39,422 nt of DNA from Candidatus Limnocylindria bacterium (GCA_036389995.1 DASWCR010000228.1:1-39422), one strand, 5' to 3'; shown: positions 4,658 to 28,886, numbered from the stretch's first letter. A program made the numbers and translations. Notes: generated by a model not told the origin, from the letters alone.

Positions 4658-6013
4658 ATGGTTGTGATGACCCGCCTTCATCTTGCAGTCAGGGGAGTCG
4701 CCGCACTCTCAGTCGCTCTCGGTGCATTCGGTATGGGCGCAAGCGCGCTGGCCGCGGACGCACCCGCGCCGGTACTCGTTGGCCATATTCAAGGCGAGAT
4801 CAACCCGATCACCGCCCGGTATGTCGACCGGGTGGTCTCCGATGGAGAGGCCGACAACGCGGCCGCGGTCGTCTTCGTGATCGACACGCCCGGCGGACTC
4901 ATCGACTCGACTTACCAGATCACGGCACGGTTCCTGGCGACGCGCATTCCGATCGTGACCTTCGTCGCACCGGCCGGCGCACGAGCCGCCTCTGCCGGGA
5001 CGTTCATCACCATGGCCGGCCACGTCGCCGCGATGGCGCCGGCGACGAACATCGGCGCCGCCCACCCGGTCGACTCGAGTGGTGGCGATATTCAGGGGGA
5101 TCTTCGGCTCAAGGCCGAGAACGACGCGGTCGCCCACATCGTGAATATCGCCAAGGTCCGCGGGCGGAACGAGACGTGGGCTGAGGACGCTGTCCGTAAG
5201 AGCGTGAGTGCACGCGTCGACGAGGCCTTGACCCTTCATGTCGTGGACCTCGAGGCGAGTGACGTGCCCGACCTTCTTGCAAAGATCGACGGCCGCACGG
5301 TGACGACGACCGCCGGCGCGGTGACTCTCGCGACGAAGAACGCGCCCGTCGCCGACGATGGGCTGAATCCGATCGAGACGTTCCTGCACTTCGTCGTGGA
5401 TCCGCAGATCGCCGTACTGCTCTTTACTCTCGGCACGTACGGCCTCATCTTCGAGCTCTCGAACCCTGGCCTCATCTTCCCTGGGATCATCGGCGTGATC
5501 GCGATCATCCTCGCGCTCTTCTCGTTCGGCACTCTCGACGCGGACGGCGCAGGCATCGCCCTGATGGTGTTCGCGCTCCTTCTATTTGTCGCCGAGATCA
5601 AGGTGCAGGCGCATGGCCTGCTGACGGCCGGCGGTGTCGCGGCGCTTGTCATCGGGCTCATCGTCGTGTTCCCGCCATTCCGTCCGACCTTCCCGGGCGT
5701 ACGCCAAAGCGTCGAACCGCTCCTCGTCGTCTTCGTCGTCGGCCTGACGGCGATCTTCTTCGGAGTTGCATTGCGTACCGCGCTGCGGCCGCTGCCCATC
5801 GCGAGCGGAGCTTCGTTGCTCCTCGGTGCGGTGGGGGTGGCGAAAACCGACGTCGCGCCGCGCGGGATCGCCCATGTGGCCGGCGAGGATTGGACTGTGG
5901 TGAGCGAAGGGGGAGACATCCCGAAGGGTGGCGCGGTGCGAGTGAAGCGTGTCGACAGCGTGCGGCTTATCGTCGAACCGGCGCGGGGCGCCGAAGGAAA
6001 GGGAGCGGCCTAA
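4658..6013 (+). CDS. nfeD: NfeD-family membrane-bound ClpP-class serine protease
   Basis: 451 aa. Signal/TM at the N-terminus; ClpP-like block VVFVIDTPGGLIDSTYQITARFLATRIPIVTFVAPAGARAASAGTFITMAGHVAAMAPATNIGAAHPV; central TM bundle; C-terminal OB-like NfeD domain (GEDWTVVSEGGDIPKGGAVRVKRVDSVRLIV). Immediately followed by an SPFH gene. Confidence 0.85.
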   Translation: MVVMTRLHLAVRGVAALSVALGAFGMGASALAADAPAPVLVGHIQGEINPITARYVDRVVSDGEADNAAAVVFVIDTPGGLIDSTYQITARFLATRIPIVTFVAPAGARAASAGTFITMAGHVAAMAPATNIGAAHPVDSSGGDIQGDLRLKAENDAVAHIVNIAKVRGRNETWAEDAVRKSVSARVDEALTLHVVDLEASDVPDLLAKIDGRTVTTTAGAVTLATKNAPVADDGLNPIETFLHFVVDPQIAVLLFTLGTYGLIFELSNPGLIFPGIIGVIAIILALFSFGTLDADGAGIALMVFALLLFVAEIKVQAHGLLTAGGVAALVIGLIVVFPPFRPTFPGVRQSVEPLLVVFVVGLTAIFFGVALRTALRPLPIASGASLLLGAVGVAKTDVAPRGIAHVAGEDWTVVSEGGDIPKGGAVRVKRVDSVRLIVEPARGAEGKGAA

Positions 6014-6892
6014 ATGAATCTGAGTCTTATCGGTCTCGGCATCCTCATCGTCATTTTGATCCTCGCGCTCCGGGCGATCATTCACATCGTACCGGAGTAC
6101 CAGCGTCTCATCGTCTTCCGGCTCGGAAGCTTTGAGAAAACGGCTGGCCCCGGCATCGTGCTGCTACTCCCGCCGCCGATCCAAAGCGTTGCCCAGACCG
6201 TCGATCTCCGGGAATTCGTGGTGGAGATCCCACAGCAGACCTGCATCACGAAAGACAACGCGCCGATTTCGATCGACTTCCTGATCTACCAGAAGGTCGT
6301 CGAGCCGAAGGACTCGTTCCTGAACATCCAGAACTTCCGTCAGGCCATCCAGGGCATCGCGACGACCACGCTCCGCGCCGTCGTCGGGAACATTCCGCTT
6401 GACGACGTGCTGGCTAAGCGCGAGCAGATCAACGAGGAGCTCCGGGTGAAGCTCGACGACATCACCCACCGCTGGGGCGTGAAGGTCACGAACGTCGAGA
6501 TCAAGGAGCTCACGCCGCCGCGCGACGTGCAGGAGGCGATGAACCGCCAGCTCACCGCGGAGCGGACCCGGCGCGCCGTGGTCACCGAGGCCGAGGGCAA
6601 GAAGGCCTCTCAGATTCTCGTCGCCGACGGCGCGAAGCAGGCCGCGATCCTCGAGGCCGAAGGCGCCCGGCAGTCCGCGATCCTGCGGGCCGAGGGTTTC
6701 GCCTTGGCGATCTCGACGATCAATGCGCAGGCGATGACCGCGGACGCCAAGACGATGACGCTTCAGTACTTCGACGCGCTGAAGCAGCTCGGTGCGTCAC
6801 CTTCGACGAAGTTCATCATCCCGACCGAGTTCACGAACCTCGCTGCGCCGATCAGCGCGCTCGTGGCAGCCCGCGACGGCGAGAAGAAATAG
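6014..6892 (+). CDS. SPFH/Band 7 (stomatin-like, slipin) family protein
   Basis: 292 aa. N-terminal TM, then IVPEYQRLIVFRLGSF...GPGIVLLLPPPIQSV..VDLRE...TKDNAPISIDFLIYQKV, plus a coiled-coil Ala/Glu-rich tail. Start abuts the nfeD stop (TAAATG). Confidence 0.9.
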   Translation: MNLSLIGLGILIVILILALRAIIHIVPEYQRLIVFRLGSFEKTAGPGIVLLLPPPIQSVAQTVDLREFVVEIPQQTCITKDNAPISIDFLIYQKVVEPKDSFLNIQNFRQAIQGIATTTLRAVVGNIPLDDVLAKREQINEELRVKLDDITHRWGVKVTNVEIKELTPPRDVQEAMNRQLTAERTRRAVVTEAEGKKASQILVADGAKQAAILEAEGARQSAILRAEGFALAISTINAQAMTADAKTMTLQYFDALKQLGASPSTKFIIPTEFTNLAAPISALVAARDGEKK

Positions 6893-7834: not shown

Positions 7835-9109
7835 GTGAAGGCTAATGCGGCGGTGATCGACCACACCCAGCGCGATCCGTGGGAGGTCGCGCTCGAGCAG
7901 TTCAGCATCGCGGCGGACAGGCTCCATCTCGATCCGAACATGCGGCGCATCCTCAGCACCACGCAGCGCGAGCTCACCGTGCACTTCCCCGTGCGGATGG
8001 CCGACGGAGTCGTCCAGGTCTTCACGGGCTACCGCATCCAGCACAACACCACTCGCGGTCCCGGGAAGGGCGGCATCCGTTACCACCCGTCGGTGTCGTT
8101 GAACGAGGTCAAGGCGCTCGCGATGTGGATGACGTGGAAATGCGCCGTCGTCGGCATCCCCTACGGCGGCGCGAAGGGCGGCGTCGTCTGCGATCCAAAA
8201 GGCATGAGCGCGCAGCAGCTCGAGACGCTCACCCGCCGCTACACGACCGAGATCGAGCTCCTCATCGGTCCGGACCGCGACATTCCTGCTCCCGACGTGA
8301 ACACGAACGCCCAGACGATGGCCTGGATCATGGACACGTACTCGATGCATCATGGCTATACGGCCCTGGCCGTCGTGACCGGGAAGCCGCTCTCCATCGG
8401 CGGAAGCGAAGGCCGCAACGAAGCGACGGCGCGCGGTGCCGTCTACACGATCATCGAGGCCGCCAAGCACCTGAACATGGATCTCGAGGGCGCGCGCGTG
8501 GTGGTCCAGGGGTTCGGCAACGCAGGCAGCTTCTCGGCGAAGCTCATGGCTGAGCTCGGCGCCGTGATCGTCGGTCTCTCGGACACGAGTGGGGCGATCG
8601 CGAACCCGAAGGGTCTCGACCCGAATCGCGTCGACGCGTACAAGAGAGAGACGGGCTCGGTGACCGGGTTTACCGGGGCGGAGCGGATCTCGAACGCCCA
8701 GCTCCTCGAGCTCGACTGCGACATCCTCATTCCGGCCGCGATCGAGAACCAGATCGGCGAGCACAACGCGCCGCGGATCAAGGCGAAGGTCATCGCCGAG
8801 GCCGCGAACGGGCCGACGAGCCCCGAAGCTGACCGCATCCTTTTCGACAAGGGTGTCTTCCTCATCCCCGACATCCTCTGCAATGCCGGCGGCGTGACCG
8901 TGAGCTACTTCGAGTGGGTGCAGGATCTGCAAAACCTCTTCTGGCGCGAGGCCACGATCAACGCGCGCCTCAAAGAGGTGATGGTGAAGTCCTTCAATGA
9001 CGTTTTGGAGACCTCGAAGAAGCACAAGGTCGACATGCGAACCGCGGCGTACATGGTCGCGGTCGGACGCGTCGCCGAGGCGACGCTTACGCGAGGGATA
9101 TACCCCTGA
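7835..9109 (+). CDS. gdhA: NAD(P)-dependent glutamate dehydrogenase
   Basis: 424 aa. GPGKGGIRYHPSVSLNEVKALAMWMTWKCAVVGIPYGGAKGGV is the Glu/Leu/Phe/Val dehydrogenase active-site block. Rossmann motif VVVQGFGNAGS. GGAGG RBS upstream of the GTG start. Confidence 0.95.
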   Translation: MKANAAVIDHTQRDPWEVALEQFSIAADRLHLDPNMRRILSTTQRELTVHFPVRMADGVVQVFTGYRIQHNTTRGPGKGGIRYHPSVSLNEVKALAMWMTWKCAVVGIPYGGAKGGVVCDPKGMSAQQLETLTRRYTTEIELLIGPDRDIPAPDVNTNAQTMAWIMDTYSMHHGYTALAVVTGKPLSIGGSEGRNEATARGAVYTIIEAAKHLNMDLEGARVVVQGFGNAGSFSAKLMAELGAVIVGLSDTSGAIANPKGLDPNRVDAYKRETGSVTGFTGAERISNAQLLELDCDILIPAAIENQIGEHNAPRIKAKVIAEAANGPTSPEADRILFDKGVFLIPDILCNAGGVTVSYFEWVQDLQNLFWREATINARLKEVMVKSFNDVLETSKKHKVDMRTAAYMVAVGRVAEATLTRGIYP

Positions 9110-9113
9110 TCGT

Positions 9114-10247
9114 CTAGCGGAACGAGATCGGCGCGGCGAGCAGCGAGCCGGACATCGGAAGCGGCGCGGTGCGGCCGGTCGCAAGGTCGACCGCCATCGC
9201 GTTCGCTCCGCCGTCGAACGCGACGAAGGCGAGCGCTCCGTCGGAGCTAACGAGAAGGTCGCTTGCGGTCGGTAACCCTCGCGCGACGACCCGGCGAGCG
9301 CCCCCTGCCTTGGGCCAGATCTCGAGACGGTCCGCGACCAGAACGACGATCTCATCGGTGCCGGGCTTCCAGTGTGCGAACCCGATGCGCTCGCCCGACG
9401 GCGCTCCGAATTCGCGATGGTCGTTGTATGACGCGAGGGTCCAGACGCGGAGGACGCTCCCGTTCAGCACGCCGAGCACGTCGTTGCCGCTCGCGCGGAT
9501 CGTTATGGCGGGGATGCCCGCCTCCATCGGGACCCGCGAGCTCAACGCGTCCTCTCCGACCACGACCCACGCGATCCCCGTGGCATCCGGCCCCCCGTAA
9601 ACGCACGCGCCGACAAGACGCGTGACACGATCCCATCCGACCGGCCAGTACTGGCTCCCGTCGGTGAGTCGGGAGATCTCGTGGATCGATCGCGTCGGGG
9701 TGTCCACAACGCGAAGCGCCGAGAACGGCCCCGGCGCCTCCCCGGTCCCGGCTCGTCCGCTCGATTCCACGACCGCGACAATGCCGGTCCGATCAGACGA
9801 CCAGACCGCGGCCGCGCCGCGTTCGGTGTCGAGGACGGTCGCGAGAGTCGTGTCCTGGTCCGGCGCGGTGACGTCGAACACCCGCAGCTCGCTCGCGGCC
9901 CCATCGGCCGTCCTCGATACCCAGTAGGCGACGCGCCTGCCCGTTCCCGACACCGCCCCGACGAAGCCCTGACCGCGTAGCGAGCCGATCGGAGCGGCAT
10001 CGGTCTCGCGGCGAAGGTCGGCGGCCGCGGCTTTTCCCGGCAGCGCGACGAACCCGCGCGAATCCGAAAGGAGGGGGCCAGCGGGAGTCGCCGGGGCCGT
10101 GACGGTGGGGAGCGGTAGGGGCGTGGGAGTCGGTGCCGATTCTCCGCGCAGGGCGACCGAACCGCCCGCGAGGACAGCGAGCAGGACGATCAGGAGGAGG
10201 ACGGTGCCGATCCAAAACAAGACCGGGTGGGCGTCTTTGCCACGCAC
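9114..10247 (-). CDS. membrane-anchored hypothetical protein, probably a TolB/PD40-like beta-propeller
   Basis: 377 aa. N-terminal TM (VLFWIGTVLLLIVLLAVLAGG), a Pro/Thr linker, then repeated strand-like units (GRRVAYWVSRTADGAASELRVFDV..., DRTGIVAVVES..., GTDEIVVLVADRLEIW..., SSDGALAFVAFDGG...). The fold assignment is inference. Confidence 0.5.
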   Translation of the reverse strand: MRGKDAHPVLFWIGTVLLLIVLLAVLAGGSVALRGESAPTPTPLPLPTVTAPATPAGPLLSDSRGFVALPGKAAAADLRRETDAAPIGSLRGQGFVGAVSGTGRRVAYWVSRTADGAASELRVFDVTAPDQDTTLATVLDTERGAAAVWSSDRTGIVAVVESSGRAGTGEAPGPFSALRVVDTPTRSIHEISRLTDGSQYWPVGWDRVTRLVGACVYGGPDATGIAWVVVGEDALSSRVPMEAGIPAITIRASGNDVLGVLNGSVLRVWTLASYNDHREFGAPSGERIGFAHWKPGTDEIVVLVADRLEIWPKAGGARRVVARGLPTASDLLVSSDGALAFVAFDGGANAMAVDLATGRTAPLPMSGSLLAAPISFR

Positions 10248-10353
10248 TAACCACCGCTCGCCCGCACGGTCGGTGCCAGCGGCTAAAGTTGCGCTCGCGC
10301 GCCCAAGCGGCGCGACGAGTTACCGCCCCACCAGGCGGCTAGATCGGCGAGCC

Positions 10354-13098
10354 GTGGACCGTATCCTGGTCGCGGTCGACCTCGAGACAACGGGCTACGA
10401 GGCGGAGAGCGACGAGATCATCGAGATCGGCGCGATCCGCTTGACCGTGTCTCCGGAAGGCGCGGTGACGCTTGGCGAGCGGTTTCTGACGTTCGCGGAT
10501 CCGGGTCGCCCGCTGACACCGCCGATCGTGCGACTCACGGGCATTCAGGACGAGGATTTGCTTGGCGCTCCGTCGTCGTCCGAGGCGGTCGCTTTATTCG
10601 TGGCGTTCGCGTTCCGTGACGGCCCGCCCTGTTTCGTGGGCCACAACGTGGGTTTCGACGTCTCCTTCTTGGAGCGCGCCGGGATGAGCACCGGGTCGGA
10701 GATGCTCGACACCGCTGAGCTCGCGTCGATCCTGTTGCCGTCCGCGTCGAGCTACGCATTGCAGCGGCTGGCAGCCGACGCCGCGATCAGCCCCGAAGCC
10801 GCGCACCGCGCACTCGATGACGCGATCACGTCCGCGCTCGTCCTCGGCCATCTCGCGCGCGTCGCCCGCGAGCTACCCGCCGACATTCTTGGCGAGATCG
10901 CCGCCTTGACTGACCTCATCGGTCCGAGCACCGCGGAGTTCTTCCGCGACGCGGCGGGCTCGGCGACCCGCGATGCTTGGACCGACGGCGGCGAGCACCG
11001 CGGGGGTCTTCCTCGCTCGGCCCCTCGTGGGATCGCGATGTTCGGCTCGCTAGGGGCCGCTCGCTCGGAAGACCCCCACGTTGCTCGCGAATCACCGATC
11101 TCCGTCGAGTCCGTGTTCGCGCCGGACGGTCCGCTCGCGCGCTCGGTGATCGGATATGAGGATCGTCCCCAGCAGCGCGAGCTCGCTGCCGCCATCGAGC
11201 GGACATTCGCGGATGGCGGCGCGCTCGTGGCCGAGGCTGGCACGGGCGTCGGCAAGTCGATGGCGTATGCGGTCCCGGCTCTCGCATCGGCTCAGATTGG
11301 AGAACGCGTAATCATCTCAACGCACACGCTCCCGCTGCAGGACCAGCTCGTGCGGAAGGATCTCCCCGCGCTGCAAACCGCGCTGGGCACCGACGTCGCG
11401 GTCGCCGTGCTTAAAGGCAGATCGAACTATCTCTGCCCACGCAGATGGCAGATCCTGCGCGGGTCGGTCACGACCCGCGAAGAGGCGCGTCTCGTCTGCA
11501 AGACGCTCGTCTGGCGCACAGCGACGGACAGCGGCGATCGCGCCGAGCTGAACCTCATGAGAGGAGAGGGCGAGCTCTGGTCGCGAATCTCGGCGAACGA
11601 CGAATCGTGCGATCAGCGGCGCTGCAAGCGGACGCCCGGCGTGAACTGCTACCTGCAGCAGGCACGCGAGGCAGCGGCTGACGCCGGCATCGTCGTGGTG
11701 AACCACGCGCTTCTTCTCCAGGACGCGCGGATGCGCGGCGCCCTCCTTCCGCAGGCCGAGCACGTTGTCATCGATGAGGCGCACCGGCTCGAAGATGTAG
11801 CGACCGATGCCTTCGGGCTCGAGCTCTACGAGCCGCGCTTCCGTCGCGATCTGCAGCGCGTCGCGCATTCCCCGGCGGTCACCTCGGCGCTGCGAGATCC
11901 TGCGCGCGCGGAGCCCGCTGAGCGCATCCGCACCGAGATCGAGCGCGCGGTTGAACGCACGACCGAAGTGTTCGATGCGCTCGGCGCGCTCCTGGTGCCG
12001 GCGGACGGCCCGCCCGAGGAGCGCATGCGGATCACCGCGGGCCTGCGCGCGAGTGACGAGCGCTGGCTCCCCGTCGAGCTCGCCGGCGAGCGGCTCGCGG
12101 ACGCGATCGCCGGGGTCGCGTTCGCGGCGGAACGGATCCGGAACCTCGGCGGAGACGAAGACGAGCTCGCCGAGCTCGAGGCGGCGATGGGTGAGCTGGC
12201 CGGCGCACGCGCGGCGATCACGCGCGGGCTGCACGATCCCCGTTTGAGCGACATCGTGTGGCTCGAACGCGACAACGACGGCGCCCTCGCGCTGCACGTC
12301 GCGCAGACCCACCTCGGTCGGGTGATCCGAACGACGATCGTGAACACGCATCGCGCGGTCGTGTTCACGTCGGCGACCCTGGCGGTCGCGGGCTCATTCG
12401 ACTTCGCTCTCGATCGCTTCGGCATCGCGGACGTCGCCGAGCCGCTCGCGGTCGGCTCGCCCTTCGACCACCAGCGGCAGGCACTCCTTGTGCTGCCGAC
12501 CGACATCGTGCTTCCGGGCGAGGAACGATTCATCGAGGAGGCGGCCCGGCTCATCGAAGATGTGGCGCGGGCGCTCGATGGACGAACGCTCGTGCTCTTC
12601 ACGTCACACGCGAGCCTGCGCGACGCGGCCGCGCGCCTCGGTGCGCTCGAAACCGAGGGCCTCGCCGTACTGACCCAGGGCATCGACGGATCGCGCCGCG
12701 CGCTCCTCGAGCGCTTCGCCCAGGGCCGCGCGGTGCTCCTCGGTACGCAATCGTTCTGGGAGGGCGTCGATCTGCCCGGCGACGTCCTGCGATGCGTCGT
12801 GATCGCCCGGCTCCCCTTCAGCGTGCCCGACGATCCGCTCGTCCAGGGGCGCGCCGAGCGCTATGACGACCCTTTCGTACAGTTCCAGCTGCCGCAGGCG
12901 GCACTGCGGCTGCGCCAGGGCTTCGGCCGGCTGATCCGCACCAAGACCGACTACGGCGCCGTCGTGCTCCTCGACCGCCGTGTCGTGACGAGGGACTACG
13001 GCGAGGTGCTGCTCGGCTCGCTGCCCGATGCGCGCACCGAGCATTTGCCACTCGACGGCGTAGCCGCCCGCGTGTCGGCGTGGTGTGACCGTGGATGA
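10354..13098 (+). CDS. dinG: DinG-family ATP-dependent DNA helicase fused to an N-terminal DnaQ/epsilon-like 3'-5' exonuclease domain
   Basis: Track ORF 10099..13098; start moved to GTG 10354 to clear the divergent gene. Exo motifs: VAVDLETTG, GHNVGFDVSFL, HRALDDA. Helicase motifs: AEAGTGVGKS (Walker A), VIDEAHRLED (DEAH). Cys cluster: NYLCPRR ... SCDQRRCKRTPGVNCY. C-terminal block: SFWEGVDLPG. Confidence 0.9.
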   Translation: MDRILVAVDLETTGYEAESDEIIEIGAIRLTVSPEGAVTLGERFLTFADPGRPLTPPIVRLTGIQDEDLLGAPSSSEAVALFVAFAFRDGPPCFVGHNVGFDVSFLERAGMSTGSEMLDTAELASILLPSASSYALQRLAADAAISPEAAHRALDDAITSALVLGHLARVARELPADILGEIAALTDLIGPSTAEFFRDAAGSATRDAWTDGGEHRGGLPRSAPRGIAMFGSLGAARSEDPHVARESPISVESVFAPDGPLARSVIGYEDRPQQRELAAAIERTFADGGALVAEAGTGVGKSMAYAVPALASAQIGERVIISTHTLPLQDQLVRKDLPALQTALGTDVAVAVLKGRSNYLCPRRWQILRGSVTTREEARLVCKTLVWRTATDSGDRAELNLMRGEGELWSRISANDESCDQRRCKRTPGVNCYLQQAREAAADAGIVVVNHALLLQDARMRGALLPQAEHVVIDEAHRLEDVATDAFGLELYEPRFRRDLQRVAHSPAVTSALRDPARAEPAERIRTEIERAVERTTEVFDALGALLVPADGPPEERMRITAGLRASDERWLPVELAGERLADAIAGVAFAAERIRNLGGDEDELAELEAAMGELAGARAAITRGLHDPRLSDIVWLERDNDGALALHVAQTHLGRVIRTTIVNTHRAVVFTSATLAVAGSFDFALDRFGIADVAEPLAVGSPFDHQRQALLVLPTDIVLPGEERFIEEAARLIEDVARALDGRTLVLFTSHASLRDAAARLGALETEGLAVLTQGIDGSRRALLERFAQGRAVLLGTQSFWEGVDLPGDVLRCVVIARLPFSVPDDPLVQGRAERYDDPFVQFQLPQAALRLRQGFGRLIRTKTDYGAVVLLDRRVVTRDYGEVLLGSLPDARTEHLPLDGVAARVSAWCDRG

Positions 13099-13423
13099 CC
13101 GCTCGATGAGAGACCTCGACATGTGGCTCGCCGGCATTTCGCGCGACCAGGCGGCCAGATCTTCGGATGTTCGCTGAAGCAACTGCGGGATGCTGTGGCC
13201 GCGACACTTGGCGCGGATGCCGTCAAACCCACCCGGCCCTGGACTCCCCTGGAGGCGCTGCGGGACCGCGTTCGCCGTTGCGGGCACCTCGATTTCCACT
13301 AGGTATCACTCAAACGGGGGAGTACCGCCGGGGGACTGGTGGCGCTCCGGAACGCTCCTATTCTTGCTTCACGTCGGCTGGTAGTCCTCCAGCCAAACAT
13401 GGAAGAAAGGAGGGACTTGAAAA

Positions 13424-13576
13424 GTGCTCGCATTCTTCCGTGACGACGAAGGCCAGGGATTGGTGGAATACGCACTCATCATTGCTGTCATCGCCATCGC
13501 TGTCATCGTCGCCATGATCTTCCTGCGCGGTCAGCTCCAGAACATCTTCAGCAACATCGGCAACAACCTCACCTAG
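13424..13576 (+). CDS. flp: Flp/Fap family type IVb pilin prepilin (50 aa)
   Basis: Too short for the ORF track. Own translation: (V/M)LAFFRDDEGQGLVEYALIIAVIAIAVIVAMIFLRGQLQNIFSNIGNNLT*. It has the Flp motif G-x-x-x-x-EY followed by a ~20-residue hydrophobic helix. AGGAGG lies 9 nt upstream of GTG 13424, an in-frame TGA immediately precedes the start, and a strong terminator follows. Confidence 0.8.
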   Translation: MLAFFRDDEGQGLVEYALIIAVIAIAVIVAMIFLRGQLQNIFSNIGNNLT

Positions 13577-13598
13577 TACGCCCTCTGCTGGATATGTC

Positions 13599-13635
13599 GA
13601 TCGGCCCGGCGAAAGCCGGGCCGATCTCTTTGTGT
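13599..13635 (+). terminator. rho-independent terminator of flp
   Basis: Perfect 12-bp stem GATCGGCCCGGC / GCCGGGCCGATC (13599-13610 / 13615-13626) with a GAAA tetraloop, followed by TCTTTGTGT. Confidence 0.8.
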
Positions 13636-13815
13636 CAGACGAGTCGCCGCTCGCGTGAAGTACCAACGATCAGCGGCGGATCGCGAGGTACGTCCGTACT
13701 GGCCGTAACGGGAAATCAGCCGCACAACGCTGCGCAACCGGACGTGACAGACCCGAACAAGCGAGCGTTAGGTGTTTAGGCGCCGCTAAACGACGGGCGT
13801 GCGCGGGAGGAAATC

Positions 13816-14250
13816 TTGTTCGGGAAGTCGCTCGCGATTATTGCACTCATCTTCTCTTTCGCATTCCTCGTTCTCGGCAGCACCGAAGCGTTCGCGGCCG
13901 CTCACAACGGTGGCGGCGGTCACAAGTCGGTGCCGACTGGCAACCTCAGCCTCGTTCTGCTGAATTCGACCGACGGCCTTGCGCACTGGGGTCACCAAGT
14001 GACCTTCACCGTGTCGACGACGGCGACCACCGAGCCGCACGTCGGCCTCAAGTGCTCGCAGAACGGCGTAGTGGTCTACGCGGCCCAGAGCGGTTACTAC
14101 GCAAGCTATCCATGGCCGTGGACGCAGGTCATGACCCTGTCGTCCTCCGCGTGGTCCGGCGGGTCGGCCGAGTGCGTCGCGGCCCTTTACTACTTCAGCG
14201 GCACGAATTCGGTGACACTCGCAACACTGAACTTCACCGCGTACCCGTAG
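13816..14250 (+). CDS. small secreted protein of unknown family, paralog A (144 aa precursor)
   Basis: TTG start with a GGGAGG RBS. Signal peptide MFGKSLAIIALIFSFAFLVLGSTEAFA. The mature part shares long identical blocks with paralog B (LNSTDGL.HWG.QVTFTVSTTATTEPHV.LKCSQNGV.VYA.Q.G.YA.Y.WPWTQVMTL.S.AW.GGSA.CVA.LYYFSG). Two conserved Cys. Confidence 0.75.
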   Translation: MFGKSLAIIALIFSFAFLVLGSTEAFAAAHNGGGGHKSVPTGNLSLVLLNSTDGLAHWGHQVTFTVSTTATTEPHVGLKCSQNGVVVYAAQSGYYASYPWPWTQVMTLSSSAWSGGSAECVAALYYFSGTNSVTLATLNFTAYP

Positions 14251-14284
14251 CCGTCTCCGGTCGCCCGCGCTAGCCGTAAGTCGC

Positions 14285-14320
14285 AAGGGGCCCCGGCAAC
14301 AGAGCCGGGGCCTCTTTTCG
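14285..14320 (+). terminator. rho-independent terminator of paralog A
   Basis: AAGGGGCCCCGGC-aacaga-GCCGGGGCCTCTT stem-loop followed by TTTCG. The stem core GGCCCCGGC/GCCGGGGCC is the same as in the terminator after paralog B. Confidence 0.65.
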
Positions 14321-14360
14321 TCTCGCCTGACGCGGCGGGTGTAACTCAGTCGGGACGTCG

Positions 14361-15041
14361 GTGAAGCCGTCCCCCAGCGTATCGACTCATAGACTGCGTC
14401 CCGTGCGAGGACGACATGACAGCATGTTGACGGCGCGATCGCTGGCCGGCCTAACTCCGGAAGATCAGCGGATTGTCCGTTCTGTCGAGGCGCTCTATGG
14501 ACCGCCGCGCTGGGATCGAGGCGACTGGCAGACGGAGCCCCGTATCGCGCGCTCCCGGATAAAGATCGTCGCGCGGCCGCTCGGGCCGCTGGTCCTTAAG
14601 ACGCTCCTCATGACCATCGTCGCGTTTTTCGCCTGGGTTACGTTCCTCGGTGGAGCGGCATCGCTGCGAAGCGCGGCTTCGTTTGCGCTGTCGGCCGCGG
14701 GCCTGGTGCGGCCCAACGAAGCCGCGTCGGTCAGCGCGGAATACCTTTTGGCCGTTCGGACCGTCGCCGATGCAGGCACTCTCGCGCCGACCGATCCGAT
14801 TGTCCTCAGGCTCAAAGCTCTTCTGGACGAGCTGTCTCCCAAGTGCCAGGAAGATCGGTACGTGGTGGCGGAGGCCGTCATCGCGGCACACGATGCGCTC
14901 GCCACACGCGGTCTCGAGGCATCATCCGTTTCGATCCTCGTTGCGGCGAATGCGACCCTCTCGGAGCGGACGCGTCGCTCGTGGCCGACGAGTTGTGGTG
15001 ACGTGATCCAACGGATGGGTGCCGGTACTCCGGCGCACTAG
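14361..15041 (+). CDS. hypothetical membrane protein
   Basis: 226-aa ORF (GTG 14361; alternative ATG 14424). Hydrophobic segment PLGPLVLKTLLMTIVAFFAWVTFLGGAA followed by an Ala-rich helical domain. No recognisable family. Lies between the two paralog cassettes. Confidence 0.5.
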   Translation: MKPSPSVSTHRLRPVRGRHDSMLTARSLAGLTPEDQRIVRSVEALYGPPRWDRGDWQTEPRIARSRIKIVARPLGPLVLKTLLMTIVAFFAWVTFLGGAASLRSAASFALSAAGLVRPNEAASVSAEYLLAVRTVADAGTLAPTDPIVLRLKALLDELSPKCQEDRYVVAEAVIAAHDALATRGLEASSVSILVAANATLSERTRRSWPTSCGDVIQRMGAGTPAH

Positions 15042-15152
15042 CCCCGTACCCGCGTACTAGTTCCGCTGCTGTAGGTCAGGGGCCAACCCTGCGGAGGTTC
15101 CTATTCCCAGAACGGGTGATCCGCGGGAACGTTAGCCATGGATGAACAACGT

Positions 15153-15173
15153 TTCTGTGTGGAGAACACAGAA
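15153..15173. promoter_or_regulatory. inverted repeat TTCTGTGT-N5-ACACAGAA upstream of paralog B (candidate operator)
   Basis: Perfect 8-bp arms (15153-15160 / 15166-15173), about 27 nt upstream of ATG 15200, in a visibly lower-GC spacer. The regulatory role is inferred. Confidence 0.3.
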
Positions 15174-15199
15174 CGGTCGCGTAAGGAGGTGATCGCGCG

Positions 15200-15631
15200 A
15201 TGTTCAACAAGGCGCTCGCATCGATCCTTGCACTCTTCTTCATGGCATCCCTCGTCCTCGTCTCTGCGAGCGTGTCCGCTGACGCAAAGGGCCATAAGGC
15301 CAACAGCAGCGTCACCGGCAGCGGCTTTACCCTCGTCGTGCTCAACTCGACGGACGGTCTCCCGCATTGGGGTGGCCAGGTGACGTTTACCGTCTCGACG
15401 ACTGCGACAACCGAGCCGCACGTGAGCCTCAAGTGCTCGCAGAACGGGGTCCTGGTCTACGCGACCCAGACCGGCTTCTACGCTGGCTATCTGTGGCCGT
15501 GGACGCAGGTCATGACCCTCACATCGGTCGCATGGACCGGTGGGTCGGCCGACTGCGTCGCGACCCTCTACTACTTCAGCGGCGCAGACGTTGTCTCGGT
15601 CGGAACGCTGAGCTTCACCGCGCAGCCATAG
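15200..15631 (+). CDS. small secreted protein of unknown family, paralog B (143 aa precursor)
   Basis: ATG with an AAGGAGG RBS. Signal peptide MFNKALASILALFFMASLVLVSASVSA. The mature region is collinear with paralog A. Confidence 0.75.
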   Translation: MFNKALASILALFFMASLVLVSASVSADAKGHKANSSVTGSGFTLVVLNSTDGLPHWGGQVTFTVSTTATTEPHVSLKCSQNGVLVYATQTGFYAGYLWPWTQVMTLTSVAWTGGSADCVATLYYFSGADVVSVGTLSFTAQP

Positions 15632-15658
15632 TCTAAGGTCGCCCTGATCGCTGACAGC

Positions 15659-15695
15659 AAGAGGCCCCGGCTCGAGCCGGGGCCTCTTCTTTCAC
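15659..15695. terminator. bidirectional rho-independent terminator between paralog B (+) and the large exoprotein gene (-)
   Basis: Perfect palindrome AAGAGGCCCCGGCTC/GAGCCGGGGCCTCTT (15659-15688) followed by CTTTC on the + strand. It sits between convergent stops at 15631 and 15717. Confidence 0.7.
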
Positions 15696-15716
15696 TCTCT
15701 AGACGAGCCGTTCAGA

Positions 15717-17861
15717 TCAGTTCGTGATCGTGAGTGCCGTGCTCTCGCACCGCGAGGAGCCGGACACGAAGCTGTCGCTCGACGTGAAGACGACCTCCCA
15801 CGAGACGGTGCTGGTCGTCGTGACCGAGACGGCCCCCGGCCCTGTGTTCGTGGTGGATCTCATCACAGGCGAGGCCGCGCCAGAGAATGTGAAGGTCTCC
15901 GCAGCGCGGAGGACCGTGCCCGTGCAGTTGCCACCATCGTGCAGCGTGAACGACAACGATCCGCTCAAGGGTGCGGCTGAGGTGACGGTCGCGGAGTCGT
16001 TGGGTAGCCACGTCTGCGCCGAAGATGTGGACGAGGTGGTCGACACGGTGAAGCACTCGTTCAATCCGCTGTCGCTCGAGGGCAGGTAGTGGTTGTCACC
16101 GCTGTATTCGCCGCGGAAGCAGTAGCGTCCGACGGCGGTCGGGGTGACCGCGCCTGAGGTCGCGCTTGCGCTCGGTGGCGGACCATTGGTGCCGGCGTCG
16201 AGTGCGACCGGGTTGCCGGTGACCGCCGTGCCTCCGGTGTCGCAGGTGCCCGTCGCGATCGGTCCGCAGATGAAGAAGTTGACGGTTCCCGTCGGGATGC
16301 CGCCGACGGCGGATCCGGTGACGACCGCCTTGTCGTAGATCGACTCACCGAGCTGGATCGCGTTCTTGGGGGTCCCGCTCCCGTCCACCGGGGTCGTGAT
16401 CGTGTTTGACGGGATCCTCGCGACGGTGAAGCACTCGTTCGTGCCGTCGGCGCCGCCGTATTCCTTGAGCGCCGTCGTGTAGTTCGCGTCTCCCGGCCAT
16501 TCGGCGCGGAAGCAGTAGCGTCCCGGGGTGAGGCCAGCCCCCGTGTTCACGTCGGGGGAGTCGGCGCTCGCCGTGGCGCCCGAGCCGCTCAGGGTGCCGG
16601 TCCCGATGTTGGTGCCGACGTTGGTCGTGCCGTCGCAGGCGCCCGTCGCGATAGGACCGCAGAGGAAGAACGTCACGGTCCCGCTGGGCGTCTTCGAAGG
16701 CTGGTTGCCGACGACGGTCGCCGTGTCGTGGACGCCGGTACCGGGCGTGACCGGGCCCGCGTTCGACACCTGGGTCGACATCGTCGCGACGCAGTTGCCG
16801 AAGTTGCCGAGGACGAAGTCCTTCAGCGTCGCCGTCGTCGAGGTCGAGGAGCGCGTCTCGGCGAGGAAGCTAGCGAAACATTCGCTCGCGATATTGGGAA
16901 GCAGGGACAGGTTGATCCCAGCTTCGAGGAACTCACCCTGGTCGTACGCGGTGTTGCCGCGCTTGTCCAGATAGGGCCACGGGGCCGCAACCCCGTTCAC
17001 CGGGTTGACGAGCCCGCAGAAGGGGTCACCCGGTATCGCGGCCGTCACGCAGTTCGCGGCATCCGAAGTCTCCTGCAGATGCAGGTTCGCGTCAGCGCAG
17101 TACCCGGCCGGTTTGTTGGCGGCGGTGCATGTGCTGTCCCACGTGAGGATCGTGATCGTCGAGACCGTGCCGCCATTGCTGAAATCGCTGATGACCAGAA
17201 CGTCGCCATCCATGTGGACGCCGTTGAAGCCGGTAGCGCCACCGACCTTGTTGGTGCCAAGGGTGACCCGGTTCTGGAAGAACCAGAATCCCTGCTGGGC
17301 GTCGCCGCTGTTGTCGAACCGGTCCGAGCCGAAATAGACGAGCTCGCAAGTCGGAGTCCCACCTCCCGGACAGGTGGCGCTGGAGGGTTCCGAGTACCGA
17401 ACGGCGAAGCCGTGCTCGAGATTGTCCTTATCAGGCAACCCGCCGGCCCCGTCCTTCCAGGCCCACTGGTTGATATCGATCGGGTCCTTGGACCCGCCGC
17501 CGGTGAAGATGCTGCTGTTCGGGTTCGCCTCGGCGGTCCACGAGACCGCCGTCGCGCCCGACGTGGGCGACGCGATGCTGCAACGTGCTTGGGCCTGAGC
17601 CGGGGTCAGACCGTCTCCGCCCTGGCTTACGGGCGTTACGCCGACCTGGTAACAGACCTTGTCCCAGTCGTCGCTCGCCGCTGGTGTTCCGGCCGTGTTG
17701 GTACCCGTGGCGGCGTCGCCGTCGAGTTGGAAGATGCCGGTGTCGTGCACGGCCTGCGCGGCGTATGGGACCAGTAGCGTGAAAACCATTGCTGCGACGA
17801 GGGGCAGCACCAGAGAACGGCGTAAGAGCCGGATCCCGGTCGCCCCATTGACTCGCGTCAT
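15717..17861 (-). CDS. large secreted Cys-rich protein: unknown ~400-aa N-terminal domain plus two tandem Ig-like repeats and a third beta-rich C-terminal domain
   Basis: Track ORF 15717..18002. Start moved to ATG (complement 17859-17861), which has GGAGGG 7 nt upstream and gives the signal peptide MTRVNGATGIRLLRRSLVLPLVAAMVFTLLVPYAAQA. Tandem repeats: PSGTVTFFLCGPIATGACDG...GRYCFRAEWPGDANY...ECFTVA and PTGTVNFFICGPIATGTCDT...GRYCFRGEYSGDNHY...ECFTVS (bacterial Ig-like G-x-Y-x-x-x-A-x-Y-x-GD-x-N-Y style). No LPXTG or other recognisable anchor at the C-terminus. Confidence 0.8.
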   Translation of the reverse strand: MTRVNGATGIRLLRRSLVLPLVAAMVFTLLVPYAAQAVHDTGIFQLDGDAATGTNTAGTPAASDDWDKVCYQVGVTPVSQGGDGLTPAQAQARCSIASPTSGATAVSWTAEANPNSSIFTGGGSKDPIDINQWAWKDGAGGLPDKDNLEHGFAVRYSEPSSATCPGGGTPTCELVYFGSDRFDNSGDAQQGFWFFQNRVTLGTNKVGGATGFNGVHMDGDVLVISDFSNGGTVSTITILTWDSTCTAANKPAGYCADANLHLQETSDAANCVTAAIPGDPFCGLVNPVNGVAAPWPYLDKRGNTAYDQGEFLEAGINLSLLPNIASECFASFLAETRSSTSTTATLKDFVLGNFGNCVATMSTQVSNAGPVTPGTGVHDTATVVGNQPSKTPSGTVTFFLCGPIATGACDGTTNVGTNIGTGTLSGSGATASADSPDVNTGAGLTPGRYCFRAEWPGDANYTTALKEYGGADGTNECFTVARIPSNTITTPVDGSGTPKNAIQLGESIYDKAVVTGSAVGGIPTGTVNFFICGPIATGTCDTGGTAVTGNPVALDAGTNGPPPSASATSGAVTPTAVGRYCFRGEYSGDNHYLPSSDSGLNECFTVSTTSSTSSAQTWLPNDSATVTSAAPLSGSLSFTLHDGGNCTGTVLRAAETFTFSGAASPVMRSTTNTGPGAVSVTTTSTVSWEVVFTSSDSFVSGSSRCESTALTITN

Positions 17862-18052
17862 AGAAACCCTCCATTTGTCTTTCGCGGGTCTTCCCGGTCG
17901 CAGGGCGACTGGCGGCAGCGCCGAGCCCACCCCCCTTGGGCACGTTCGCGCTGCCATGGGGCGTCCCACCTCTTGCGTCCCGGCGTGGGAATGGAGCAAC
18001 AACGGACCGGGGGCAGTAAATGACCAAGAACCGGACCACCGCCGTGGCCCGG

Positions 18053-18076
18053 GTCGTACTCAGTTCTAAGTACGAC
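18053..18076. promoter_or_regulatory. inverted repeat GTCGTACT-N8-AGTACGAC in the divergent exoprotein/LuxR promoter region (candidate operator)
   Basis: Perfect 8-bp arms (18053-18060 / 18069-18076), located between divergent starts at 17861 (-) and 18187 (+). The role is inferred. Confidence 0.3.
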
Positions 18077-18186
18077 GCTCGGGTAAACGAACCGAAAGGC
18101 GCAGGCAGCGGGCGTGCATTTGCACCTCGATTCTGCGGGCGCTAAATTGCCTCGGGGCGCGCGCAGGTGGGGGGCACGGAACAACG

Positions 18187-18795
18187 ATGGCGCTCGAGAG
18201 ACGAGAGACGATCCTCGTTTGGGATGAGAGCGGAAAAGTCTTCGACGCGCTTCGCCGCGCGGCCGTGGGTGCGTCGCTGTGGCGCGTGTCCGACAAGCCG
18301 AAAAACGGCGACCTCGAACAGGTGGATCTGGCCGTTGCCGCGCTCTATCGCTCGTCGGATTGGAAAAAGATCGCCACGGTCGTGCGTCAGACTCGCACGG
18401 TCATCGTCAGCACGACGTCGGACCGTCGTGACGCAGCGCGCGCTCTGGCCTCGGGCGCTTTCGGCTACCTCGACCTCGGCGTGTCGTCGCGCGCGATGCG
18501 GCGCGCGCTTGTCGGCGCGTTGCGCGGCGAGCCTGCCTACTCGCGTGCCGTCCTAGGCGACCGGATCCGTATCGAGCTCAGGACTGCCGCGTCTCGCGGG
18601 GCGCGGACGCTCGAGCTCACGCCGCGCCAACGTGAGGTCGTCGCGCTCATCGCCACCGGCGCGTCCGACAAAGAAATCGGGACGGCCCTGGGCATCGCGA
18701 CGGCGACCGCGCAGAAGCATGTCACGCATCTTCTAAAGCGCCTCGACGTTCCCAACCGCGCCGCCGCCGTGGCGGCGACGCTGATCTCGACTTAG
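18187..18795 (+). CDS. LuxR/FixJ-family transcriptional regulator with an atypical (probably non-phosphorylatable) receiver-like N-terminal domain
   Basis: 202 aa. C-terminal HTH: LTPRQREVVALIATGASDKEIGTALGIATATAQKHVTHLLKRLDVPNRAAAVA. The N-terminal half has a receiver-like layout (ILVWDESG..., VIVSTTSD..ALASGAFGYLDLG), but the conserved Lys after GYL is Asp. No kinase gene is nearby. Confidence 0.8.
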   Translation: MALERRETILVWDESGKVFDALRRAAVGASLWRVSDKPKNGDLEQVDLAVAALYRSSDWKKIATVVRQTRTVIVSTTSDRRDAARALASGAFGYLDLGVSSRAMRRALVGALRGEPAYSRAVLGDRIRIELRTAASRGARTLELTPRQREVVALIATGASDKEIGTALGIATATAQKHVTHLLKRLDVPNRAAAVAATLIST

Positions 18796-19190
18796 ACGGC
18801 GCGGCGAAGGGGCCGCATCGAGGGGCGGCCGAGCACGCCATCACAAGCCCGGCGGAGCTCGTCCCAGAGCTCTCCGGACACCTCTTTCCGAGCGAGCATG
18901 TGCTGCCCTGGCTCGACCGTCTCGTCGCCGGTGGCAGGGAAGTCAGCTTTCGCCGGGTTGTGGAGGTCGAGGTACCACCCCCCGCGCGCGAGGCGTGTCC
19001 CTTCCGGGACGAGGGGCATCGCAGCGAGATCGGCATCGGAGAATGAAAGAAGGACGCGGTGGTCCGCCCGGACCTCCCTCGCGGTGCGCCGCTCGACGCC
19101 CGGAGGGGAGCTCATCGGGTCATCCGACATCAGGACTTCCCACCGCCGGGACGTCCCTCGGGGCACTCGCGCTTCGTCGTACTTTGCCAT
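18792..19190 (-). CDS. hypothetical protein (132 aa)
   Basis: ATG start, GC3-rich, no TM or signal. Convergent with the LuxR gene and overlapping it by 4 nt. No family recognised. Confidence 0.45.
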   Translation of the reverse strand: MAKYDEARVPRGTSRRWEVLMSDDPMSSPPGVERRTAREVRADHRVLLSFSDADLAAMPLVPEGTRLARGGWYLDLHNPAKADFPATGDETVEPGQHMLARKEVSGELWDELRRACDGVLGRPSMRPLRRAV

Positions 19191-19264
19191 GTGCCCGTAT
19201 TACTCCGCACAGTCCGTGCCGGACTTGAGAGGGACCTAAGAAAGCGAGGCCGATCGACTCGCCT

Positions 19265-19408
19265 GACGGGCTGCGGGTCCTGTCCCGGGGTCGGGGTCGC
19301 GCGCTCGCCTACCGGTCCGCTTCCCACCACTTGGACCCGCACATGGCTGACGCGGCCCGGTCAGCGGCTCGCGCGCAACCCGCTCCCCCGTGCCACCCGC
19401 AGCCCGTC
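19265..19408 (+). repeat. copy 1 of a ~140-nt long-imperfect-hairpin element (possible ncRNA or MITE/REP-like unit)
   Basis: 14-bp perfect basal stem GACGGGCTGCGGGT (19265-19278) / ACCCGCAGCCCGTC (19395-19408). The inner arms are nearly identical to the reverse complement of 39100-39240 (e.g. CCTGTCCCGGGGTCGGGG.CGCGCGCTCGCCTACCGGTCCGC and CGGCTCGCGCGCAACCCGCTCCCCCGTGCCACCCGC). The ~30-nt apex differs. Confidence 0.7.
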
Positions 19409-19515
19409 GATTCGCGACCCTTAGAATTGATTCAGATCGAGCACGAAGCTCGGTACTTCACACGTCTGCCGATCCCCCTCGTTGGTATGGCAGGCGGAGG
19501 AATAAGGGGATCACC

Positions 19516-28049: not shown

Positions 28050-28834
28050 TGGTCCGCTACCTCCGCTTGCTGCGGCTGTTCTTCCGGACCGAGCTTCAGT
28101 ACGAGCTCGAATACCGGCTCAACCTGCTTCTGGAGATCGTGCAGACGATCGTCGTCACCGCCACGAGCGTTGGCGCGATCCTCGTGCTCTTCAGCTACAC
28201 GACGGTGCTGAACGGATGGGACCTCGGCGCCATGCTCGTGCTTCTCGGATGCTTCTACCTCGTGCAGGGGTTCGGCGAGCTCGTTCTGCAGCCGAGCTTC
28301 GAGAAGTTCATGGAGCACGTACGCCTCGGCACGCTCGACTTCGCGCTCCTCAAGCCGGTGTCGGCGCAGTTCCTGGTCACGCTCCGCAACTTCCAGGTCG
28401 TGCAGCTCGCGCAGATGGCGCTCGGGGCGATCGTCGTCACGGTCGGCCTCTCGCGGATCCCGAGCATCGGCCTCGCCGAAGCGATCGGATTCCCGATCGC
28501 GCTCGTGTGCGGGTTTGGGCTCATCTACGCGCTCCTGCTCGCGCTCTCGACGTTCGCGTTCTGGTTCGTCCGGGTCGATAACCTCATGGCCCTGTACTGG
28601 TCGTTCATGGACGCGGGCCGGTTTCCGGTGGACGTGTATCCCGGGTGGCTGCGCGTGACGCTATCTAGCGCGGTGCCGATCGGGGTCGCGGTGACGGTGC
28701 CCGCGCAGGTGATCGCCGGACGCCTCGATCCCCTCGGCCTTGGGCTGCTCATCCTCGGGACTGTTGCCGCGTTCGTGCTCGCGTCGTGGTTTTGGCGGCT
28801 CGGTCTGCGGTCGCACACGGGTGCGAGCGCGTGA
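28049..28834 (+). CDS. ABC-2 family transporter permease (second subunit)
   Basis: The real product is the 3' half of track ORF 27374..28834, starting at ATG 28049 (TGATG overlap): MVRYLRLLRLFFRTELQYELEYRLNLLLEIV.... Polytopic. Confidence 0.75.
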   Translation: MVRYLRLLRLFFRTELQYELEYRLNLLLEIVQTIVVTATSVGAILVLFSYTTVLNGWDLGAMLVLLGCFYLVQGFGELVLQPSFEKFMEHVRLGTLDFALLKPVSAQFLVTLRNFQVVQLAQMALGAIVVTVGLSRIPSIGLAEAIGFPIALVCGFGLIYALLLALSTFAFWFVRVDNLMALYWSFMDAGRFPVDVYPGWLRVTLSSAVPIGVAVTVPAQVIAGRLDPLGLGLLILGTVAAFVLASWFWRLGLRSHTGASA

Positions 28835-28844
28835 GCGACGAGAA

Positions 28845-28863: not shown

Positions 28864-28886
28864 GCGGTCTCGCTAGGGCTCTCTCT

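Follow-up and report, generated by a model that had tools for sequence, protein, structure and literature searches.

Between the core genes dinG and rpsB of a Candidatus Limnocylindria bacterium (GCA_036389995.1, DASWCR010000228.1:1-39422; the whole 39,422-nt stretch is called the window hereafter) stands a block of genes for which Pfam and NCBIfam return no enzyme family, and the question raised by this locus is whether these genes work together, and to what end. A first-pass annotation had proposed a single co-regulated surface module, with a Flp pilin as filament subunit, two small secreted paralogues as accessory subunits, and a large exoprotein as tip adhesin next to a LuxR-type regulator. 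Its gene inventory was right, as confirmed by a list of open reading frames (ORFs) and by family scans, as was its remark that the block genes lack a recognisable enzyme family. The proposed module is supported in part, for a core composed of the two paralogues (parA and parB), the exoprotein gene (exo), and luxR, but Flp and a 132-aa gene lie outside it. Instead, the block is composite, with an accessory cassette inserted between two backbone genes, and is laid out as follows:

10099-13098, dinG, the upstream core-gene border of the block (rpsB forms the other border).
13424-13576, plus strand, flp, a 50-aa Flp prepilin (Pfam Flp_Fap, 35.6 bits against a cut-off of 32.2).
13424-13626, plus strand, backbone flp with its terminator, the protein being identical with or without the cassette.
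13634-18791, unstranded, the 5.2-kb accessory cassette parA-TM-parB-exo-luxR, present or absent at this site in sister genomes.
13816-14250, plus strand, parA, encoding the 144-aa precursor of a small, predicted secreted, Ig-like/E-set beta-sandwich protein.
14361-15041, plus strand, the TM (transmembrane) gene, encoding a single-pass membrane protein of 226 aa.
15200-15631, plus strand, parB, 143 aa, a parA paralogue lying tail-to-tail with exo.
15717-17861, minus strand, exo, 714 aa, read from an ATG with a GGAGG ribosome-binding site.
18187-18795, plus strand, luxR, a LuxR/NarL-family regulator with a GerE match.
18792-19190, minus strand, the backbone 132-aa gene (u132), encoding a cytoplasmic protein of no assigned family and found beside Flp in empty-site genomes at 83-89% identity.

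The boundaries of the cassette are given by sister genomes in which the site is empty (L numbers denote stretches of other genomes). In BLASTN alignments, the collinearity of L117, L119, L120, and L123 with the window ends at 13631-13633 and is restored at 18792/18793, which places the left breakpoint just past the Flp terminator and the right one at the stop of the 132-aa gene, with only ~15-20 bp between the two at the empty sites; no target-site duplication or terminal repeat was seen at the junctions. Because these sisters keep both flp and the 132-aa gene and lack 13634-18791 exactly, these two genes belong to the backbone, and the 132-aa gene cannot be retained as a module member. The interval between Flp and rpsB holds nothing in L121 and L124, the 132-aa gene alone in the four empty-site sisters above, and a parA-exo-GerE set along with the 132-aa gene in L118 and L122. 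The cassette of L118 is a variant in which two further genes, one of 71 aa and one of 129 aa (DUF7475), separate Flp from parA (8462-8851 of that locus); different small genes gather at this site. Elsewhere, the TM-parB-exo-luxR unit adjoins a cox operon in L002 and L006/L085, with proteins 68-85% identical to those of the window, and its recurrence there as a whole indicates that the regulator travels with the unit.

Flp is inherited independently of this cassette, which removes it from its proposed position as the filament subunit of the module. In the collection, 1632 blocks list the identical 50-aa protein, which stood directly 3' of dinG, followed by core neighbours, in all 8 places read, cassette present or not, and which lies between dinG and rpsB in the cassette-free L117, L119-L121, L123, and L124. 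It carries a G/XXXXEY processing motif (...EGQG/LVEYALI), and no prepilin peptidase, TadA/TadBC, or RcpA gene was found within +/-8 kb of Flp in 8 other contigs. ORFs resembling Flp were not found near exo beyond close relatives. Genes of the tad/cpa type, as the first-pass annotation had stated, and sortase genes are missing from the ORFs scanned across the 39-kb window; those scanned outside the block encode core genes (gdh, NfeD/Band_7, tsf, pyrH, frr, uppS, cdsA, dxr, rseP, ispG, proS, and ruvB). Across L117-L124, Flp is 92-100% identical where dinG is only 60-90% identical, which is unusually conserved for a pilin.

Within the cassette, exo and a parA-family gene form a conserved convergent core pair. 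Anchoring on exo yielded 79 genome loci, 68 of which include at least 800 bp of downstream sequence, and a parA-family gene lies directly downstream of exo in half of the latter (34/68), always on the opposite strand and 57-369 bp away. Reciprocally, exo is the convergent neighbour in 26 of 34 parA-anchored loci, with contig ends accounting for most exceptions. The loci with the pair belong to Actinomycetota and Chloroflexota, plus a few from genomes placed in other phyla. Homologues of the paralogues and of exo thus co-localise in other genomes, as had been predicted, and the predicted association with luxR was also recovered, with a divergent GerE regulator within 1.5 kb upstream of exo in 15/64 loci. 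When ORFs near exo were clustered (82 loci), exo, parA, and luxR were the only widely recurrent real families; other large clusters mostly looked like alternative exo frames and were not screened with Pfam for sortase. No usher, chaperone, or dedicated processing enzyme was found in the cassette or among recurrent neighbours. Arrays hold one to three partner genes (L016, L051, L094), and the partner is optional since an iterated hidden Markov model (HMM) search for divergent partners in parA-less loci found none, save two fragmentary ORFs ~1.7 kb downstream of exo in L081.

Alignments and per-domain HMM coverage divide exo into a signal peptide, a ~330-aa head, Ig repeats, and a ~110-aa C-terminal domain:

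16767-17756, minus strand, the N-terminal head domain (residues 36-365).
16041-16766, minus strand, two Ig-like repeats (Big_3_5-type) with paired Cys in each.
15720-16040, minus strand, the C-terminal domain, with a conserved QTWLPNDSAT...CESTxLTITN signature and no known anchor.

An adjacent partner was never seen with proteins that fail the head profile (the Intrasporangium type), and is present with some exo proteins lacking the C-terminal domain. Across 34 pairs, parA distances correlate with those of the head at r = 0.42 vs r = 0.16 for the C-terminal domain, a modest and phylogeny-confounded signal amounting to a weak hint. The comparison of sister genomes is much stronger evidence for a cognate unit than such distance correlations. 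Between the window and its cassette-bearing sisters, identity reaches 94-98% for gdh, 87-98% for rpsB, and 92-100% for Flp, then 68-83% for u132 and 72-78% for LuxR, and falls to 34-51% for parA and 33-37% for the exo head, with nucleotide homology resuming ~35-50 bp upstream of the exo start codon. Because the pair has diverged while LuxR and the flanks are similar, and yet the exo of the window is 57-58% identical to Actinomycetota proteins, the secreted pair consists of ancient, deeply diverged types that replace one another as a unit at a fixed site, leaving the regulator and promoter region in place.

The exo family includes more than 2033 homologues, with matches in Actinomycetota (including isolates of Terrabacter, Humibacillus, Nocardioides, and Promicromonospora), in Chloroflexota, and in a few metagenome-assembled genomes (MAGs) assigned to Acidobacteriota, Gemmatimonadota, and other phyla. 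Among culturable carriers, Terrabacter sp. Root181 (L055) has exo together with its partner, and Nocardioides jejuensis (L065) has exo alone. Its head is marked by the motifs FTGGGSKD, PDKDNL, DRFDNSGDAQQGFWFFQ, HxDGDxLVxSxFxNGG, and ETRSSxSxTAxLKDF, and its AlphaFold2 model is confident (pLDDT 87.4, pTM 0.90), while a Foldseek search of this model against the PDB gave no meaningful match (best E 1.8e-3, TM-score 0.13) and BFVD likewise none. Sequence profile searches of the PDB with parA and with exo also returned no match, and the head family, for which Pfam and NCBIfam have no model, appears undescribed, its members being annotated only as 'hypothetical', 'Ig-like', or 'DUF11'. Behind the head, the Big_3_5 match is weak in exo itself (two stretches, 26.9 bits vs a cut-off of 35.5), PF16640 is precomputed for many homologues, and the number of Ig repeats ranges from 1 to 4 across the family, with two in the window. 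The C-terminal domain is shared with Intrasporangium-type proteins, in which Pfam finds no alternative known head on the Ig and C-terminal part. The exo protein has 20 Cys and, with its signal peptide, is predicted to be exported. A regular-expression search found no LPXTG variant in exo, in line with the first-pass annotation, and a C-terminal hydrophobic span is also absent.

The paralogues parA and parB are 65% identical, each with an N-terminal hydrophobic signal and two Cys, and a mature size of ~115 aa. Family members begin with a signal that has an AXA-type site, continue with a Gly/Ser-rich linker, and share a beta-sandwich of seven strands holding one conserved Cys pair; the consensus lacks a lipobox, and parA as read from its sequence lacks the prepilin G/XXXXEY signal. 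Export of both proteins is predicted. The family counts 586 matches at 90% clustering, all hypothetical and without a Pfam domain; at 50% identity it falls into 735 clusters, and every listed member is a stand-alone protein of 67-258 aa. The seven-strand AlphaFold2 core of parA (pLDDT >90) returned only generic Ig-like/E-set matches in Foldseek, the best being RhoGDI (TM-score ~0.45); a conserved aromatic patch, YPWPW, is present, and the weak fold matches include carbohydrate-binding and CARDB-like domains. When parA was aligned to exo with hhalign, the signal peptides alone aligned, with no detectable relation to any exo domain. As for the TM protein, it has one hydrophobic span (~residues 69-102), and its gene, despite a weaker GC content at third codon positions (0.72), is considered real because it is conserved at 66-70% aa identity in L002, L083, L084, and L085, the only loci where it occurs; it is thus confined to this one cassette type, which narrows the place it had been given in the module.

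Genes of the parA family also occur, with no exo, in two contigs assigned to Candidatus Saccharibacteria: L099 has a tandem pair of them (5317-6432, GC content 44%, flanked by recO, glyS, and mraZ-rsmH-ftsI-like genes as read by eye) and L096 a single one (GC content 50%). Saccharibacteria live as episymbionts of Actinomycetota, which suggests a transfer from the host along with a stand-alone role for the small protein.

Turning to regulation, the luxR product matches GerE at 46.9 bits (cut-off 23.5) without any Response_reg match. Its alignment to NarL covers residues 56-194, beginning after the acceptor position, and by eye Ala52 takes the position of NarL D59 while K109 is not retained, suggesting that the receiver is degenerate (a pseudo-receiver) and that LuxR is, for this reason, probably phosphorylation-independent. 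The window holds no cognate kinase, and alignments to models of NarL, CsgD, EpsA, and FimZ are weak and far below cut-offs. The following candidate control elements were identified:

18053-18076, unstranded, candidate operator CGTACT-N8-AGTACG in the exo-luxR spacer, a perfect inverted repeat with 8-bp arms.
13688-13699, unstranded, paired CGTAC half-sites GTACG-tc-CGTAC 5' of parA, a candidate regulator site kept in L083 and L084.
15045-15057, unstranded, paired CGTAC sites CGTAC-ccg-CGTAC 5' of parB, kept in L002 and L083-L085.
18120-18148, plus strand, putative luxR promoter TTGCAC-17 nt-TAAATT, a consensus reading only, kept across cassette types.
15153-15173, plus strand, inverted repeat with perfect 8-bp arms in the parB leader, not a terminator, its symmetry kept through changes in both arms in L002, L083, and L084.
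13599-13626, plus strand, terminator hairpin 3' of flp.
14285-14316, plus strand, terminator hairpin 3' of parA, with 13-nt arms that are 92% complementary.
15659-15688, unstranded, bidirectional terminator, a perfect 30-nt palindrome (15+15 nt) common to the convergent parB and exo.

The two perfect inverted repeats of the first-pass annotation were thus found again, at 15153-15173 and 18053-18076. In L098, L102, and L118, the latter palindrome reads CGTACC-N8-GGTACG, with both arms changed symmetrically as expected of a dimer-binding site, and the exo-luxR spacer as a whole is conserved across cassette types. A comparable pair, GTACG-gc-CGTAC, stands 5' of parA in the divergent L118 cassette. 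An exact-pattern search counted 4 paired CGTAC sites in the window, i.e., the exo-luxR palindrome (both strands), the parB site, and one inside a Band_7 gene, vs 0.76 expected, and 2 of 100 shuffles reached 4. Paired sites before parA and parB and in the exo-luxR spacer fit the co-regulation that had been proposed for the block. Because the single pentamer is itself frequent (94 copies in the window), this is suggestive rather than proof that LuxR acts through paired CGTAC sites. Strong terminators had been credited to four genes; four genes are indeed served, but by three hairpins, since parB and exo have one in common. Similarly, the spacers were said to be less GC-rich, which is true of most but not all of them (0.595-0.70 vs 0.662 for the window), making the difference modest and inconsistent.

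Two leader sequences contain further conserved elements. In the exo leader (17900-17960, minus strand), a block GCAGCGC...GCCCAAGGGGGGTGGGC...GCGCTGC is kept across cassette types in which exo is only 33-37% identical; this leader has no Rfam match, and the whole 5' leader is no more stable than shuffled sequence (z = 0.58). The parA leader contains a hairpin, GTTTAG-GCGCCG-CTAAAC (13774-13791), which is identical in L083 and L084 while flanking bases vary.

The head domain extends well beyond these phyla. A tblastn search against plasmids identified a head homologue on conjugative Vibrio plasmids (37% identity over ~350 residues), and a protein search brought the proteobacterial membership to at least 553 (~520-560 aa each), with Vibrio, Aeromonas, Shewanella, Pseudoalteromonas, Pseudomonas, and Marinobacterium represented. 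DUF7507/DUF11 (CLIPPER) domains follow the head in these proteins, and Acidobacterial homologues also carry DUF7507/CLIPPER_2; CLIPPER domains, which contain intramolecular isopeptide bonds, form the stalks of extracellular polypeptides at the cell surface (PMC12617251). Among 75 proteobacterial loci, 43 have a convergent downstream gene for a secreted metzincin of ~600 aa (HELGHNFGLxH motif; NPCBM_assoc and Big_9 domains), which lies within 59-160 bp in 32. A sigma-54 activator with a VpsR domain occurs within 4 kb in 26 of the 75, and type II secretion system (T2SS) genes lie upstream, the secretin in 18 and T2SS-M in 12. Aeromonas media and Vibrio diabolicus are culturable carriers of the head protein with both the metzincin and a VpsR-like regulator. 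No similarity between parA and the proteobacterial metzincin was detected with hhalign, and this head-metzincin arrangement is apparently a second conserved locus that is also undescribed. One carrier is the Vibrio parahaemolyticus plasmid pHLB-202008 (L125, 7779-9413, WP_077202393.1), from a shrimp-associated Vibrio, in which the head homologue carries two DUF7507 repeats. A link between the Vibrio plasmid homologue and a CS1-type chaperone-usher fimbrial operon was considered and discounted, because transposase-like ORF remnants intervene (by eye) and chromosomal loci show no such link.

We propose that the horizontally exchanged cassette at 13634-18791 encodes a regulated extracellular protein pair. 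The exported exo would combine a head of a new family, an Ig-like stalk, and a conserved C-terminal domain, and the exported small Ig-like parA and parB would be its cognate partners, most likely binding its head. The divergent LuxR-type regulator may control parA, parB, exo, and itself via the paired CGTAC sites. The most likely role of such a pair would be in cell-surface or matrix interaction (adhesion, aggregation, or recognition), with the pair existing as deeply diverged, swappable specificity types. CsgD/VpsT-like LuxR regulators and VpsR-like families are known to control matrix genes, and a matrix, adhesion, or recognition pair is favoured because head plus stalk is the layout of fibrillar adhesins and the associated regulators come from these matrix-gene-controlling families. 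We hold this reading tentatively, its chances being close to even, as several observations weigh against it: half of the exo genes (34/68) lack an adjacent partner, exo shows no known anchor, sortase signal, or adhesive domain, and the strongly conserved polar residues of the head would also suit an enzyme. The faintness of the parA-head distance correlation and the abundance of single CGTAC pentamers count on the same side. A broader possibility, to which we give a low probability, is that the head domain marks an unrecognised extracellular system across several phyla, a novel device for cell-cell recognition or self-assembly whose fold has no solved relative. In such a system, the head gene would almost always lie tail-to-tail with a cognate secreted partner, in swappable specificity types, the kind of partner depending on the phylum: small and Ig-like in Actinomycetota and Chloroflexota, a metzincin in Proteobacteria.

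The same pairing could instead reflect antagonism, with exo as a secreted effector (bacteriocin-like or lytic) and parA/parB as a neutralising or immunity protein, likewise secreted, whose gene has a convergent promoter of its own. The separate promoter and terminator of the partner would fit this, as would its multi-copy arrays, the orphan partners without exo (including the tandem copies in a Saccharibacteria contig), the presence/absence polymorphism of the cassette, the co-diverged types of sister genomes, and the diversity of the partner family. However, Pfam, NCBIfam, PDB sequence, and Foldseek searches identified no toxin or lytic domain, PADLOC gave no match, and the head, unlike toxin domains engaged in an arms race, keeps 45-60% conservation from one phylum to another. 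The partner is also apparently soluble and secreted, and an exo gene that requires immunity would be self-harmful in the many loci without an adjacent partner, which together make antagonism unlikely. An enzymatic function is comparably doubtful: the head would be a novel catalytic domain, acting for example on a glycan or cell-wall polymer, and the aromatic-rich beta-sandwich would bind substrate or modulate activity. Consistent with this, polar residues of the head (GSKD, PDKD, DR..N.GD, H..GD, and ETRSS...LKDF) are invariant across Chloroflexota, Actinomycetota, and Vibrio, the proteobacterial partner is a secreted metzincin with T2SS genes nearby, and parA has its YPWPW patch and weak carbohydrate-binding and CARDB-like fold matches. 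Against it, the head resembles no known enzyme fold or family, and Ig or CLIPPER stalks more typically carry binding domains on display (PMC8286594, PMC12617251).

The remaining two explanations concern the block as a whole. The integrated module of the first-pass annotation, a Flp fibre with parA/parB as accessory subunits and exo at its tip, could draw on the adjacency of Flp and parA in the window, L004, L054, L083, and L098. It is nevertheless highly improbable, given that genomes without the cassette retain the identical Flp at this site, that the breakpoints exclude Flp and its own terminator, that other lineages have no Flp-like ORF near exo and the window no tad machinery, and that parA does not carry a prepilin signal. 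Lastly, the genes might be unrelated hypothetical ones juxtaposed by chance, and Flp, the TM protein, and the 132-aa gene do co-occur with the pair in close relatives only. Since a fixed convergent core pair recurs in dozens of loci from several phyla and with different flanks, chance is refuted for parA/parB and exo, and in part for luxR, and holds for Flp and the 132-aa gene; as an account of the entire block it has very little to recommend it.

Comparison with known systems places the regulated extracellular pair closest to a surface protein of the fibrillar-adhesin (FA) type, with a dedicated partner and a local LuxR, and no tested family admits the locus as a member, in agreement with the earlier remark that its composition matches no described locus type. 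Gram-positive fibrillar adhesins and FA-like proteins have an N-terminal head and tandem stalk domains, and nearly half of the FA-like ones lack a known anchor (PMC8286594). Like them, exo is predicted to be exported as one polypeptide, its N-terminal head preceding putative tandem stalk domains of Ig-like type, but its head belongs to no known adhesive family, it has only 1-4 stalk repeats, no LPXTG, SLH, or LysM anchor, a C-terminal domain of unassigned role, and a dedicated small partner gene tail-to-tail. A different likeness is to loci such as curli csgDEFG-csgBAC and Vibrio vps/rbm, in which matrix or fibre genes are under CsgD/VpsT-type LuxR regulators: here too, an atypical-receiver LuxR/GerE regulator is divergent from genes for secreted structural proteins, and proteobacterial head homologues stand beside VpsR-domain activators. 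The cassette, however, is unrelated in sequence to curli, RbmA, Bap1, or TasA and lacks genes for assembly machinery, and the W[FLM][TS]R motif of VpsT is not evident in its LuxR. In Pseudomonas aeruginosa, pilA groups with tfpO/tfpW-Z are cassettes of a type-specific pilin and cognate accessory gene at a fixed locus, and similarly combine a structural surface protein and its cognate gene swapped together as diverged types among close strains; the proteins are unrelated, and here it is the Flp pilin that is invariant and a non-pilin pair that varies.

Pore-forming colicin operons, in which the immunity gene is oppositely oriented, resemble the locus in having a small cognate partner gene with its own promoter convergent to the gene of a large secreted protein, and in being accessory and organised in types. 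They differ in that exo has no toxin domain, and its partner is secreted rather than a membrane protein and missing from half of the loci. Tad/Flp pilus loci share the bona fide Flp prepilin (Flp_Fap) that adjoins the cassette, but TadV/CpaA, TadA/CpaF, TadBC, and RcpA are all missing from the 39 kb. Sortase-assembled Gram-positive pili and LPXTG proteins differ in the LPXTG and hydrophobic tail that exo lacks and in a sortase that the window lacks, and chaperone-usher or donor-strand fibres in ushers and chaperones, absent from the cassette and its recurrent neighbours. With LuxR/FixJ/NarL response regulators, the cassette regulator shares the GerE helix-turn-helix but not a receiver with phospho-acceptor Asp and Lys. 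Profile and structure searches of the unknown proteins matched no well-characterised unrelated family; such matches would, according to the first-pass annotation, have counted against its module. PHROGs, PADLOC, Pfam, and NCBIfam on all cassette proteins returned only GerE and the weak Big_3_5. Literature searches on Big_3_5 in Actinobacteria, Limnocylindria pili, and the Vibrio accession turned up nothing relevant.

Several features of the window lie outside these subjects. LuxR and the 132-aa protein carry neither a signal nor a transmembrane segment, so that the block is not exclusively surface or secreted as had been described. Among public genomes, the closest relatives are MAGs from soil that bear the label Chloroflexi or Candidatus Limnocylindria, with L083, for instance, reaching 100% identity in gdh and 96% in parA. 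An Rfam scan of 13000-19500 gave only sub-threshold terminator-like hairpins, and a tRNA search found no tRNAs. Positions 13094-13302 hold the remnant of a 104-aa gene that is intact after dinG in L117 and L123, and which is probably a pseudogene because its N- and C-terminal parts are in different frames around an internal deletion. Two sizeable conserved ORFs without a Pfam match lie at 9114-10247 (minus strand) and 363-1790 (plus strand), the 377-aa protein among them having an N-terminal membrane anchor and being syntenic in relatives at 58-96% identity. A Phd/YefM antitoxin-like match (28740-29204, plus strand; 28.2 bits vs a Pfam cut-off of 29.8) is located 3' of ABC-2 transporter genes.

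Overall, the attractive link to the neighbouring Flp pilin is corrected as wrong, and attention shifts to a head domain which, along with its rule of tail-to-tail pairing with a secreted partner, appears undescribed. The head family is large, with more than 2000 matches among monoderm soil phyla and no fewer than 553 among Proteobacteria; the isolates that carry it include members of Vibrio, Aeromonas, Pseudomonas, Shewanella, Terrabacter, and Nocardioides. A fixed partner, a local biofilm-type regulator, and the swapping of types between near-identical genomes are hallmarks of a surface interaction determinant under selection. For soil Chloroflexota such as the Limnocylindria, which have no genetics, the culturable carriers of this family provide a concrete, testable handle.

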